Origin: Octopus vulgaris
Lineage: Eukaryota
Assembly: GCA_951406725.2 (NCBI GenBank)
Contig: OX597824.1
Span: forward strand, 23,746,001 to 23,810,000
Direction: 5' to 3'
Length of the DNA: 64,000 bases
The notes beneath the pieces are model-generated. The model saw only the letters and a program-made list of their open reading frames with translations, was not told the DNA's origin and made no database searches. The first letter of the stretch is position 1, and every line of letters starts with the position of its first letter. This document shows positions 1 through 62,134 of the stretch, in pieces. Both the position numbers and the translations under genes were made by a program.

Positions 1-1334
1 GCTATCTAACTATAAATCTATCCACCTATCTATCAATCTATCTATTTATCTATCTATCGATAAATATATAGAAACACACATAAATACATAGAAACGCCCA
101 TTTACAAATCTACATACATAATACATTGACATATATATATATATATATATATATATATAGACATATATATATATAAATACATAGGTATGTATGTGTGTAT
201 ATATAATATATATATATGTGTATATGCAAGTACGTATATATATATATATATATATACATATATATATACATATATATACATATATATACATACATACATA
301 TATATATATATATGTATATATACACACACAGATATATATATATATATAATTTGGAGTGGTGTACAGATTTTATATATTAAGAAAAGGGAGGTAGTCAAGA
401 TTTAGATAATAACCATTTATCTAGTGTTTCCGTCTCTTTCATACATACAGACAACCACTTATATATATACATACATCTATGTGCGTGTGTGCGTGTGTAT
501 GTATATGTATATATATGTATATATATATATATATATATATATATATATATATATATATAATATATATATATATATATATATATATATATATATATATATA
601 TATATATATATATATATATATATATATATATATATATATATATAACACGCACCTGCGTGCGCATACATATATAGATACACATGCAAATTTATTCCATCTC
701 GTTCAGCAATTTGGTGAAGCTATTACACCATTCTCATTAGGTGGAACAAATATGTATTCCTTCTACAAATTCTAACAAGCACATATTGATAAGTACATTC
801 ATATACATATACACACATACATACACGTACACACACATATATATATATATATATATATACATATATATACATATATATATACATACACACGCAGACAGAT
901 ACACAAACATACTTACACGCACGCATAAACGCACACACACACACACATATATATATATTCATGTGATTAATATAGCTATATTATATAGATATGTATGCAT
1001 AAAAACACACATATGCATATATATATATATATATATATATATATATATGTGTGTGTGTGTGTGTGTGTATGTGAGTGTGTGAATAAGCTTGTAATTGTGG
1101 TTCTATGCATCTGTATTGTTTTCTATGTATCTACGTATCTATTCATGTTTAAATTGCACACACGTATGTATATATATATACATATATATACATATATATA
1201 TATATATATATATATATATTATATATATACATATATATATGTATACGTATATATATATATATATATATATATATATATATATATATATATATATATATAT
1301 ATATATATATATATATATATTATTATATAGAAGG

Positions 1335-1432
1335 AGCTTCTACAGGACTAGAACTGTTTCATTCAAGAGAAATCTTCAGGAAGCTTCCTGAAGATTTCTC
1401 TTGAATGAAACAGTTCTAGTCCTGTAGAAGCT
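1335..1432. ncRNA. Type I hammerhead ribozyme encoded on both strands of a perfect 128-bp palindrome (1320-1447)
   Basis: + strand: stem I AGCTTC (1382-87) / GAAGCT (1427-32); CTGAAGA (1388-94); stem II TTC-TCTT-GAA with a T.T closing mismatch; GAAA (1407-10); stem III CAG/CTG; GTA cleavage triplet ending at 1426. The mirror copy lies on the - strand at 1335-1385. Confidence 0.75.
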
Positions 1433-1859
1433 CCTTCTATATAATAAATTAATTTTACTCTGCTCTGTATTGAGTACCTTATTTACTGTGGTTAACCCCG
1501 AATCAACCCGGGACCTACATATATATATATATATATATATATATATATATATATATATATATATATATATATATATATATATATATATACATATATATAT
1601 ATACATATACATATATATATGTATATATATGTATATATATATATATACATATATATATACACACACATTTAATTGCCAAGCGAGTGTGGTGTCATATTCG
1701 GTACAGTGTCACTGACATTTATAACCCATGTTACGATTCCGTATTGCTACTGTTTACGTCTCGCTCAGAGATTTAATATAGCATACATACACCCCCCCCC
1801 ACACACACACACACTCACACACTCACAAATATACACACACACACATATGTATATATATT

Positions 1860-2168
1860 CTCGTTATGAGGGTAAAAAATTTAGAATAATTCATCACCAG
1901 TGGTTCGCACGTGTTTTTCGGTACGTGTTAAAAGCTACGTACTTATGCATTCTTTTAGAAATCCCACTGATGAACTACGGATGACAAAGTAATTTATGTG
2001 CTTATTAGTAGGGAAACTCTAGTATGGGATTAACTATTCATTCTAGTGCCATTATCGGCATGCCTTCACAATTATTTTATGCGTAGTTTGGATTTAACTG
2101 CCCCTTTTATCGTGGAAGAAATCCTGTCAAGGGTCTTCTCTCTAGGTGTATATCTTTATACACTCTGA
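1860..2168 (+). mobile_element. PLE (Penelope-like) pLTR-type non-coding insert in a (TA)n tract
   Basis: Complex ~300-bp island flanked by TA/CA repeats and containing a hammerhead. Related sequence occurs at 45035-45232 and, inverted, at 46170-46225. Confidence 0.55.
1960..2031 (+). ncRNA. Type I hammerhead ribozyme with long stem II
   Basis: AATCCCA (1960-66), CTGATGA (1967-73), A-CTAC...GTAG-G, GAAA (2013-16), CTCTAG, TA (2023-24), TGGGATT (2025-31). Stem I is 7 perfect base pairs. Confidence 0.8.
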
Positions 2169-2247
2169 TGTATATATATATATATATATATATATATTGG
2201 CGATTTTTTTCCTCCGTCTTCCCTTCTCTGGATCTTTCCTTTTCCTA

Positions 2248-2284
2248 TGTTTCTGACGAAGAGCTCCGCTCGAAACGTAAAACA
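2248..2284 (+). ncRNA. Minimal type I hammerhead ribozyme (PLE-type)
   Basis: TGTTT CTGACGA A GAGC-TCC-GCTC GAAA CG TA AAACA. Stem I is 5 bp, stem II 4 bp, and stem III is reduced to palindromic ACGT, as described for PLE minimal HHRs. Lies within insert 2197-2385 between TA tracts. Confidence 0.85.
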
Positions 2285-2417
2285 GTCCTTCTTCCCTTCC
2301 TTCCTGAGCGTCCAATAATACTATATTTGTTCCACGTCCCCGCGTTGTTGTGTTTTCTCTTGGTATTTTCATGTTTGGGTTAACTATATATATATATATA
2401 TATATATATATATATAT

Positions 2418-2633
2418 AATTCATAAATGAGGGCAAAGGAAAAAATTTCTAATGCCAAATATGCCGAAAAATTGGACATATTGTCCATTAGCCATATAAA
2501 TTTTCACAATACGCACGCTACTCGCGTAGCGTGCGTATTGTGAAAAATTTATATGGCTAATGGACAATATGTTCAATTTTTTTCGGCATATTTGGCATTA
2601 GAAATTTTTTCCTTTTGCCCTCATTTATGAATT
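2418..2633. repeat. Long fold-back inverted repeat (~105-bp arms, 4-nt loop TCGC) in a TA-embedded insert
   Basis: AATTCATAAATGAGGGC...CACGCTAC tcgc GTAGCGTG...GCCCTCATTTATGAATT. The arms differ mainly in homopolymer lengths. Confidence 0.9.
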
Positions 2634-59901: not shown

Positions 59902-60166
59902 TGTGGAGGCGCAATGGCCCAGTGGTTAGGTTAGCGGACTCGCGGTCGTAGGATCGCGGTTTCGATTCCCAGACCGTGAGTGTTTATTGAGCCAAAACAC
60001 CTAAAGCTCCACGAGTCTCCGGCAAGAGGTGGTGGCGATCCTTGCTGTACTCTTTCGCTACAATCTCTCTCGCTCTGACGCGATGGCTAAAACAATGCGA
60101 AGCGCATTGTGACCAGCTATGTGTAGCAGCATCTGATAGCCTGGTCGGTCACGGTGATCACGGTGA
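59902..60166 (+). mobile_element. SINE C head fused to a different tail ending in (CACGGTGAT)2
   Basis: Matches family C up to ~60070, then diverges. Confidence 0.7.
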
Positions 60167-60259
60167 TATATATATACATACAGATATATATATATATATA
60201 TATATATATATATATATATATATATATATATATATATGTGTGTGTGTGTGTGTGTGTGT

Positions 60260-60658
60260 GTGTGGTGAGTAACTTGCTTACCAACCACATGGTTCCGGGT
60301 TCAGTCCCACTGCGTGGCCCCTTGGGCGGGTGTCTTCTACTATAGCCTCGAGCCGACCAAAGCCTTGTAAGTAGATTTGGTAGACGGAAACTGAAAGAAC
60401 CCCGTCGTATATATGTATGTATATATATATGTATGTGTGTGTATATGTTTGTGTGTCTGTGTTTGTCCTCCCCAACATCGCTTGACACTCGATGGTGGTG
60501 TGTTTACGTCCACGTAACCTAGCGGTTCGGCAAAAGGGACCGATGGAATAAGTACGAGATTTACAAAGAATAAGTCCTGGGGTCGATTTGCTCGACTAAG
60601 GGCGGTGCTCCAGCATGGCCACAATCAAATGACTGAAACATGTAAAAGAGTAAAAGAG
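60260..60658 (+). mobile_element. SINE family A
   Basis: As for the 55908 copy. Confidence 0.88.
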
Positions 60659-60832
60659 AATATATAAACTAAATAATGGAACTGCAGATACAATATCCCT
60701 GAATACCACACGTCTATTACCATTCCTCCACTTCACTCTCTATTTCATATCTTAACTAGAATAACTATTGCTGAACCATTTTGTCACACCGTCTCCAATA
60801 TATAATATATATATATATATATATATATAGGG

Positions 60833-61181
60833 GCACTCCGTCGGTTGCGACGACGAGGGTTCCAGTTCATCCAATTAACGGAACAGCAGGCTGGGGAAAT
60901 TAACGTGCAAAGTGGGTCAGCACTCCACAGACACGTGTACCCTAAATGTAATTCTCAGAGAGATTCAGCGTGACACAGATTGTGACAAGGCTGGCACTTT
61001 GAAATACAGGTACCACAGAACCAGGAAGAAAGAGTGAGTAAGTTGTGGAAGAATACAGCTGGGTTCGCCACCACCGCCAGAGCCTCGTGGAGATTTAGGA
61101 GTTATCGTTCAATAAACACTCACAACGCCCGGTCTGGGAATCGAAACCGCGACCTACAACCGCGAGTCCGCTGCCCTAACC
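60833..61181 (-). mobile_element. SINE family C, truncated in the tRNA head
   Basis: Reverse complement of family C, ending at CTGCCCTAACC. Confidence 0.85.
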
Positions 61182-61182
61182 T

Positions 61183-61584
61183 TCACTATATATATATATA
61201 TATATATATATATATATATATATATATATATATATAAACGGCAAAATGTCTGCGTGTTTGCCCTTTATACAAATCCATAATTTTTCAGTTAGCGTGCTCG
61301 CACTTATGGTCATTCAAAACTGTCCAAGGGTGGTCGTGCACATCTTTACATTTCCCCAGTCACCCCGCAAAGCCATTAAAAAATCAGTAGAAGTGAGTTT
61401 TTTGCGAATTTTCTACCCAAAACCCAATCAAAATGCCCGAAATTTGATACGCTAATTGAATGCCAGCTAACTGTATGGTGATTGGTCGGAGATTTGGACA
61501 GTACTCGCGTGTATGAGCGCACGCACGCAGCTGAATATGCATGCACTAGCACTATGACCCGGCAACGCCGGGTCATAGTGCTAG
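61183..61584 (+). mobile_element. Non-autonomous Helitron (second family)
   Basis: 5' TC + (TA)n + AAACGGC...; 3' hairpin CCCGGC-AAC-GCCGGG then TGCTAG|T. The 5' boundary is approximate. Confidence 0.65.
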
Positions 61585-62134
61585 TATACATATACATACA
61601 CACACACACACACACATACATATATATATATATATATATATATATATATATATATATATATATATATATATATATATATTATATATATATATACAAATTA
61701 GAGAAGAACCACCATGTAGAATTCAACAATGATATAATTAAATCATACCATATAGAAAAAAATTAAAGATACGATAAAACATTTACCTAGAACTTAACAA
61801 AGTACGAAATAATAAATAAATAGTATATAATTAGTAAAAAGACTACACGTGTTTCGTGGCTATATTTTCAAACTGATAACAGTAAAATCAATTCAATTTA
61901 AATATAGTCCAAGATAAAAACAATAAAATAATTAAATAAATGTACGTATATTATTTTATAAAACAATATAGATATATCTGTATTTATATATATTTGATTT
62001 TTTAAAGGTTTTTATATCGATTTGTGTTGCACGTCTGATTCCATCCTGTACATATGTGTGTGCTGAACTTGGTAGTCTCTGTTAATGAAGCTGTTTTTGA
62101 GTTCTTGCAGTCTAAAGTCTGTGGTATTTTTTCT

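Follow-up and report, generated by a model that had tools for sequence, protein, structure and literature searches.

Hammerhead islands in TA tracts of the Octopus vulgaris genome: copies of Hydra-clade Penelope-like elements, a putative tandem retrozyme and their shared insertion footprint

Among the Penelope-like elements (PLEs) with a C-terminal endonuclease (C-terminal EN+), the Hydra clade is reported to combine canonical hammerhead ribozymes (HHRs) with (TA)n targets (Craig et al. 2021, PMC8557442). Section 11 of that paper gives as marks of the clade an RWK and a DKT motif, a CxCx5C linker, and CxxC and CxH around the endonuclease (EN), and its supplement lists an element from Octopus bimaculoides, Hydra-1_Obim, with both a (TA)n preference and an HHR. 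For the Poseidon PLE of Anolis (PAc), two internal start sites of the reverse transcriptase (RT) were found in vitro, with both strands being extended (Frangieh et al. 2024, PMC11167929). HHRs and TA targeting in the Hydra clade, octopus included, are already published, and the families that we describe here are uncatalogued additions. They come from a 64,000-nucleotide (nt) stretch of Octopus vulgaris DNA (assembly GCA_951406725.2, contig OX597824.1, positions 23,746,001 to 23,810,000 of the forward strand; hereafter the window), in which an initial annotation had seen about ten hammerhead candidates in short islands within TA tracts. Our comparison with the literature drew on parts of PMC8557442, PMC11167929, PMC4209133, PMC7229834, PMC3846280, PMC13282606 and 10.64898/2026.07.22.740005, and statements on these sources refer to those parts.

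Eight of these islands are very probably 5'-truncated copies of hammerhead retroelements, likely inserted by a Penelope-type RT/GIY-YIG enzyme after nicking of (TA)n. They belong to eight families, of which three are joined to Hydra-clade open reading frames (ORFs), one is a putative 560-nt tandem retrozyme, and four are families for which no ORF was found.

Hammerhead motifs, their families and their conservation

A descriptor for type I hammerheads (at least 4 pairs in stem I, 2 in stem II and 2 in stem III, with G.U allowed) gave seven matches in the window. Five of them are the loci that the initial annotation had called complete, which indeed show the order stem I - CUGANGA - stem II - GAAA - stem III - UH - stem I'; the sixth is the mirror of one of these at 1335-1385(-), also announced there, and the seventh, 41422-41472, pairs the wrong GAAA, family copies favoring the longer reading 41357-41472. 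One hundred shuffles each gave means of 0.15 (global), 0.17 (200-nt blocks) and 0.13 (500-nt blocks), with maxima of 3, 2 and 1, and the reversed window gave no match, which amounts to an excess of ∼45-fold. An excess over shuffled sequence was also found elsewhere in the genome (2.8 Gb, 227 contigs): forty 10-kb stretches at fixed round coordinates (400 kb) held 23 matches, versus a mean of 2.1 in 10 shuffles and 1 in the reversed sequence. The extrapolated load is ∼1.5 × 10^5 descriptor matches per genome (Poisson 0.9-2.3 × 10^5, a range that is too narrow, as matches cluster, mirrors are counted twice and some matches in repeated families are possibly false pairings). The claim of a high motif density in the window thus stands relative to shuffled sequence, but 7 matches against 3.7 expected from the sample is only about twofold and not significant (p 0.08). 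The window is rich in microsatellites, with a TA-tract density 2.2-fold that of the sample, and its motif density follows its TA-tract density.

Nine genome DNA searches covered the ten candidate loci, with 41357 and 41547 (families and candidates are named here by the first coordinate of their hammerhead) in one query; no alignment contains more than the 30 best of up to 40 scored candidates, and all lean towards the window copy. A tail-only query for 5' ends had no match, not even itself, and family 1382 gave 15 candidates in the DNA search versus 4,488 exact pattern matches. Candidate counts of the DNA search are therefore not copy numbers, and position-ordered pattern lists were used for junction statistics instead. 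Eight loci (1382, 1960, 2248, 41357, 41547, 55652, 56470 and 61841) proved to belong to multicopy families. Exact patterns occur genome-wide 4,861 times for 56470, 4,488 times for 1382 (the 5' 33 letters), 1,810 times for 2248 and 1,347 times for 55652, while reversed controls gave 0. The remaining two candidates, 11019 and 53602, matched only themselves in the genome, by DNA search and by exact pattern. The loci are as follows, the terms site A and site B denoting two fixed ends treated below, and pLTR a pseudo-long terminal repeat.

1320..1518 (+): family-1382 insertion, a head-to-head palindrome of a putative Hydra-type PLE 3' end (pLTR), TA tract on both sides; direct arm 1382-1518 runs to the long end (site A), inverted arm 1320-1385 to the short end (site B)
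1382..1432 (+): complete type I hammerhead; stem I 6 bp, stem II 3 bp after a mismatch, stem III an ordinary 4 bp with an 8-nt loop, H=A; mirror hammerhead at 1335-1385(-)
1864..2165 (+): family-1960 insertion, inverted tail 1864-1909 joined to the direct arm, hammerhead 1960-2031; an older family (∼78% identity among matches)
2197..2384 (+): copy of family 2248, a ∼225-nt element, with hammerhead 2248-2284 and an ACGT stem III; fixed 3' end and a 5' limit; this copy is without ∼34 nt at its 5' end
39498..39594 (+): second family-1382 insertion, absent from the initial annotation, TA tract on both sides; inverted short-end arm joined to the tail arm by microhomology, CUGANGA absent
41309..41486 (-): family-41357 copy, hammerhead 41357-41472 with a ∼90-nt stem II and a CAATTG palindrome, stem I broken by a G.G mismatch; ∼81% identity among matches
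41498..41699 (-): family-41547 copy with a decayed core, candidate hammerhead 41547-41627; in relatives (only 4 sequences), the hammerhead includes a CAGCTG palindrome and its stem II reaches up to 8 bp
55360..55760 (-): putative retrozyme, 0.7 unit, hammerhead 55652-55703 (H=U, stem III palindromic); bounded by a TA tract at the outer fixed site; 98-100% identity to relatives
56363..56578 (-): family-56470 insertion, pLTR and tail 56363-56508, inverted short-end arm 56508-56578, TA tract on both sides; hammerhead 56470-56507 (stem III 4 bp, 1-nt loop) identical to that of intact full-length elements
61674..61993 (-): family-61841 copy, putative Hydra-type PLE 3' end, ∼88% identity among matches; in 61841-61910, 12 nt including CUGAUGA are deleted, the family having a full core
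11019..11059 (-): candidate that lacks support; a hairpin of 5 bp, its core mismatched at two positions
53602..53664 (-): candidate likewise lacking support; has CUGAUGA and GAAAC, with neither stem III nor stem I closed

Of the ten original candidates, then, eight stand as members of multicopy families with a complete hammerhead, whereas 11019 and 53602 are unsupported; three of the eight window copies (41357, 41547 and 61841) are decayed, the family sequences being complete where the window copies are broken. The location of islands in TA tracts holds for the young families but not for 53602, where the nearest (TA)5 tracts are 1.0 and 3.8 kb away. Palindromic stems III, described as frequent, are found in 2248, 55652, 41357, 41547, 61841 and the family form of 1960 but not in 56470 and 1382. 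The ACGT stem III of 2248 is without a loop, and its hammerhead is therefore predicted to need a dimer.

Family 1960 is represented by additional fragments at 44955-45244 and 46136-46235, and the palindrome at 45014-45244 stops downstream of the hammerhead. Between TA tracts at 2412-2740 there is a palindromic island that includes an inverted arm and, at one of its ends, a tail of ∼100 nt. No hammerhead core was seen in it; both of its ends share a TTTT-R-Y-CCTCA word that is also present at one retrozyme end. As a shared element-end motif, TTRYCCTCA is not established (just 3 matches, ratio 2.9). An assembly gap of 100 N occupies 43108-43207.

One might hold that a loose descriptor matches such motifs by chance in DNA that is rich in AT and in repeats. 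The Rfam hammerhead models, proposed initially as a check, gave no match in the window at the gathering score, and among the best 150 of 545 rows of a scan by E value there were microRNA-type hairpin models and one Plasmodium small RNA (sRNA) model but no hammerhead; this list was dominated by microsatellite hairpins, as repeat finding was by simple repeats. The minimum-free-energy folds of the isolated motifs are no more stable than those of shuffles (z from +0.94 to -0.93), as expected where stem III is short or palindromic, and two candidates are unsupported. The excess of matches in the window and in the 400 kb elsewhere, the thousands of exact family copies in the absence of reversed matches, and the fixed position of the hammerhead in intact PLEs all contradict such an origin. 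Chance is refuted for the eight loci and, as a general account, scarcely credible; it may hold for 11019 and 53602.

In seven family alignments, the free core position N7 varied in 22 of 169 cells and the other ten core positions in 52 of 1,695, compared with 846 of 11,702 cells in noncore columns. One stem I pair changed in a compensatory manner, from C-G to U-A, in 3 of 29 copies of family 1960, and there was little variation elsewhere. Within families, covariation is weak (3 of 348 cells, a value reached by 22 of 500 shuffles). The notion that stems pair despite differing in sequence between loci is upheld, eight unrelated families keeping all three stems. Judged by these patterns, the eight families carry type I hammerheads with predicted self-cleavage. 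Family 56470 includes a U4C subfamily with a CCGAUGA core and other linked changes (9 of 30 copies, e.g., loci L074, L079, L080 and L087). An abundant relative of 2248 has CUG-UNG-AAGAG in place of CUGANGA as its first core, with stem II and GAAACGU kept (upstream in L074 and in the flanks of L181 and L356); it is possibly a variant or dead ribozyme family. In families 56470, 1382, 1960 and 61841, a pyrimidine-rich run ending in YAG stands at or just before the 5' strand of stem I, similar to the intron end reported at helix I of Penelope in Drosophila virilis (PMC4209133).

Whether the hammerhead serves insertion is a separate matter. It may be a passenger that is parasitic or conserved for a reason other than template processing and that insertion does not need, a reading that we hold to be possible. 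Mutating the HHR of PAc left in vitro insertion unaffected and none of the RNA-seq reads had its end at the cut site (PMC11167929), minimal HHRs cleave poorly in vitro (PMC4209133), no insertion end lies at the predicted cut site in the copies mapped here, and nearly a third of the family-56470 copies have the U4C core. Pulling the other way, the core is more conserved than its flanks with N7 free, and this, together with the three stems kept in eight families, points to selection on the hammerhead fold in master copies.

Autonomous partners and nonautonomous elements

RT and GIY-YIG partners, postulated from the islands, were found in the form of Hydra-type frames joined to families 56470 and 1382 and of EN remnants for 61841; the window itself held no PLE ORF remnant that we could find. 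Longer copies of family 56470 contain an untranslated region (UTR) of ∼1.0 kb, then EN and RT. Its protein search yielded at least 134 RT matches, all 134 scored being at 97-100% amino acid identity, and many open frames of 727 codons. Twelve full-length copies and two clusters have the order pLTR - ORF - UTR - pLTR, with ∼3.35 kb between identical hammerheads, and in the 727-codon frame of L287 the RWK, DKT, YRDD, CxCx5C, CxxC and CxH motifs can all be read directly. For family 1382, a Hydra-type frame in two pieces lies upstream of the hammerhead in L321, with RWR, DKT and CxCx5C present and 45% identity to the 56470 protein over 369 residues; the 2.4-kb spacer of L321 is common to L323 and L324. 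For family 61841, only Hydra-type EN remnants occur, upstream of the same hammerhead in L332 and L338. The partial tandem pLTR-ORF-pLTR with an HHR, an inverted 5' copy and an optional tail is seen for both 56470 and 1382. Judging from these frames and motifs, families 56470, 1382 and 61841 are best assigned as the 3' ends (pLTRs) of Hydra-clade PLEs, and family 56470, with its many intact frames, appears to be young and recently active. Atlas neighbors of the Hydra frame score 0.96-0.99, with GIY-YIG or RVT_1 in part of their members; a single-sequence structure model reached a predicted local distance difference test (pLDDT) score of 33.7 and was left unused.

Two further frames were met in the loci fetched. 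L184 contains an intact Hydra-type ORF of 955 codons at 914-3778 (+), in which there are asparagine-rich inserts. A UTR of 2 kb and a long-stem-II hammerhead at 5813 go with it, and the insertion lies in a TA tract directly after a family-2248 copy. We rejected this ORF as a partner of 2248, since it has its own different hammerhead and is a separate insertion. In L325, a 779-codon frame at 3457-5793 (-) lies within a family-1382 inverted insertion; it has a Pfam RVT_1 match and a cysteine-rich linker before a GIY-YIG-like end, and we take it to be probably a Neptune-type PLE.

Family 55652 is a tandem repeat with a period of 560-561 nt, 98-100% identical among matches and in arrays of up to 12 units. 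The unit has a GC content of 35% and a longest ATG frame of 105 amino acids, and folds as a circle with z -7.1 relative to 40 shuffles. On these features we classify it as a putative 560-nt tandem retrozyme without long terminal repeats (non-LTR retrozyme). Assembled contigs of four runs cover the unit; the RNA status of these runs is a guess, and contigs are uninformative on transcription, ends or circles. Next to the window copy, ∼100 nt of AT-rich sequence (55761-55860) lie between the 5' end of the retrozyme and the next TA run, opening with a word that is present in the retrozyme in the opposite orientation. Family 2248, for its part, looks nonautonomous, as the 5' limit of this ∼225-nt element is the same in nearly all of 30 copies picked by their 5' end.

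Fixed ends, TA targets and a model of insertion

In family 56470, with positions counted from the first core base, the predicted cut is after +30; site B follows at +67 to +72 and site A at +138 to +142, ahead of the ATG at +205. Individual copies stop at one of these two sites, where they meet (TA)n, and have variable 5' ends. Inverted insertions with both outer ends visible had one A and one B in 5 of 5 cases (selected by RT), and those of family 1382, picked by upstream DNA, likewise had A plus B in 5 of 5, one end being irregular. The retrozyme also has two fixed ends, at approximately +240 and +339 (∼100 nt apart), both against (TA)n, and variable 5' ends. All 13 clear inverted insertions of the retrozyme (8 of 8 and 5 of 5 in two sets; one insertion with an irregular end and one running off its locus were left out) had one of each end, with p about 1e-4 if the two sites were equally used. 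By this comparison of ends, the two-end footprint of the retrozyme appears to be that of the Hydra elements in the same genome.

The same footprint bears on the idea that the 560-nt repeat is a hammerhead-bearing satellite, spread by another retroelement or by a DNA-level process and grown by unequal crossover. Its arrays of up to 12 near-identical units and its lack of homology to the Hydra pLTRs compared would suit a satellite, local tandem amplification is favored by Li et al. 2026 (10.64898/2026.07.22.740005), and the window holds a probable fragment of a Dong/R4-type long interspersed nuclear element (LINE), described below. A satellite does not explain two fixed 3' ends against (TA)n with variable 5' ends, the one-of-each rule in 13 of 13 inverted insertions or the match to the Hydra footprint, and we consider it unlikely, later growth of arrays by crossover being still allowed.

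At the 3' ends, a TA run abuts 28 of 30 copies of family 2248, 13 of 14 of 1382 and 29 of 30 of 56470, whereas 6.8-8.4% of random positions do so. Plain 5' ends adjoin TA in 16 of 30 family-2248 copies and, by eye, in 8 of 12 long Hydra copies. These flanks at priming ends and at many 5' ends, with three families joined to Hydra-type frames and one tandem retrozyme, agree with the proposal that many independent PLE- or retrozyme-like lineages land in TA repeats. The reverse causality, that elements add or expand the TA tracts at their priming ends, would account for the high TA frequency of priming ends (93-97%) in comparison with plain 5' ends, for both outer ends of inverted insertions being priming ends and for no empty site having been seen. 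It is nevertheless decidedly improbable, given that TA next to plain 5' ends is six to eight times as frequent as in the background, that different families are stacked within the same tracts, and that sites A and B, where they lie inside tandem units, are followed by normal element DNA with no TA repeat. This last observation indicates that TA is likely the target of insertion.

For the junctions between inverted arms, we took the first 100 position-ordered pattern matches per family and counted head-to-head pairs within 5 kb, a count that needs the whole motif in both arms. Gaps of at most 40 nt made up 13 of 27 pairs in 56470 (a gap of 20 nt recurring in seven) and 11 of 19 in 1382 (seven with gap 0), versus 0 of 23 in the retrozyme. 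In both of these unrelated Hydra families, the junctions so counted lie within ∼20 nt of stem I, and the modal ones are perfect palindromes whose center, a self-complementary word of 4 bases, lies at the 5' edge of stem I; the insertion at 1320-1518 is an example. Candidate causes of this hotspot are the transcript 5' end, an RT stop at an extended stem I, or two RNAs held at the ribozyme; a 3' splice site is disfavored, as junctions include bases upstream of the AG.

From these footprints we propose that an RT/GIY-YIG protein would nick both strands of a TA tract and each 3'-OH would prime cDNA within the RNA, one at A and one at B. Both cDNAs would stop early and join head to head via microhomology, giving short, often palindromic islands. 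The ribozyme is located immediately upstream of A and B and is therefore retained even in very short insertions, hence the islands. No scar marks the predicted cut site in the insertions, which points to uncut or religated RNA as the likely template; by analogy with the literature, the ribozyme would process transcripts of tandem units into circles or RNA of unit length, in many cases as a dimer with palindromic stem III. The retrozyme, with no long ORF and the same two-end footprint, would borrow a Penelope-type enzyme. L1 twin priming is a model with a single RNA. It fits eight split 1382 copies (including window 39498-39594) and L296, but we discarded it as the general model, since most long inverted insertions overlap on the template and need two RNAs or strand displacement. 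Tentatively, then, an active TA-targeting Hydra PLE might mobilize the 560-nt retrozyme by double priming, with one cDNA per nick from different RNA sites and the cDNAs meeting at the ribozyme, in which case the hammerhead could act in integration as an RNA dimer contact or RT stop and not only as scissors.

Several points weigh against this account of the islands, besides the Rfam, folding and covariation results above. The DNA search skips common words, so that the copy sets are not random. Pfam and a PDB sequence search were blank for the Hydra frames, and the domain calls rest on motifs, on the published alignment compared by eye and on Atlas look-alikes. No ORF partner was found for 1960, 2248, 41357 and 41547 in the loci fetched, nor for the retrozyme, which has no real sequence similarity to the two Hydra elements compared. 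Finally, an automated TA test gave 3 of 29, 7 of 27 and 9 of 25 for three older families (the last being 61841), whose reference ends are imperfect.

Abundant SINE-like repeats were recognized as well. Elsewhere in the window, (TAA)n and (AAC)n repeats come after an open frame at 33887-34555 (+). The sole Pfam match of this frame is a weak one to a domain of unknown function (DUF), and we take its C-terminal part to look like the restriction-like endonuclease end of a Dong/R4-type non-LTR element.

Comparison with described systems

In a literature search by title and start of abstract, spanning few subscription papers and no Repbase, we found no octopus retrozyme, no PLE-type footprint at retrozyme ends and no PLE twin priming. 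The one-of-each-end rule of the retrozyme and the junction pile-up were not found in print either, the supplements of Li et al. 2026, PMC7229834 and PMC13282606 lying outside this comparison.

The families joined to ORFs resemble the Hydra clade (PMC8557442) in RWK/DKT, CxCx5C, CxxC/CxH, an HHR in the pLTR, (TA)n, partial tandems and inverted 5' copies, and also in having a tail at one end only (Fig. 2 legend of that paper). By eye, the Hydra proteins of this genome are like Hydra-1_Obim in the supplement, and a Hydra consensus printed there just before Hydra-1_Obim agrees with the 56470 motif in stem I and almost entirely in stem III. The HHR listed for Hydra-1_Obim itself matches none of the window motifs. 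The 3' UTRs here are 1.0-2.4 kb and the units longer than 3 kb, while the published clade is generally under 3 kb; tails are 66-70 nt here and 30-40 in published Hydra, and 56470 appears recently active with many intact frames. An intact and apparently active Hydra element with thousands of fresh insertions would offer both a protein and natural substrates for studies of PLE insertion and microsatellite targeting.

As in published HHR motifs, stem I is short, an extra or mismatched base opens stem II and stem III is palindromic; there are likewise many heterogeneous families per genome, mostly solo from truncated PLEs. Some families here differ in having a stem II of 40-90 nt or a monomer-competent stem III. 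The estimated load of ∼10^5 descriptor matches compares with ∼9,000 reported for Xenopus and up to 120,000 retrozymes in axolotl, and it means that ∼10^5 hammerhead-like motifs may lie in this genome unseen by Rfam.

With animal non-LTR retrozymes (Cervera and de la Pena 2020, PMC7229834; Li et al. 2026, 10.64898/2026.07.22.740005), the 560-nt element shares tandem units with type I HHRs, the lack of a long ORF, a GC content of 35%, a strongly self-paired predicted circle and co-occurrence with PLEs. Its monomer is longer than the published range of 150-450 nt (PMC7229834), which is a descriptive one, and it has a PLE-type insertion footprint at its ends, which the published retrozyme passages do not mention. 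Mobilization of animal retrozymes by PLEs has so far been argued from co-occurrence and phylogeny, and the shared two-end footprint makes the idea testable; if true, a retrozyme with a PLE footprint would be direct genomic evidence of it. The retrozyme footprint and the junction hotspot lift the finding above the routine.

Compared with PAc, which belongs to a different clade, the sites here are inferred from genomic ends alone, and the strict rule of one site per side as well as the hotspot of junctions at stem I are seen here but not in the PAc passages (PMC11167929). Like PAc, the octopus elements would have two start sites downstream of the HHR that define the tail, both strands would be nicked and extended, and the targets are AT rich.

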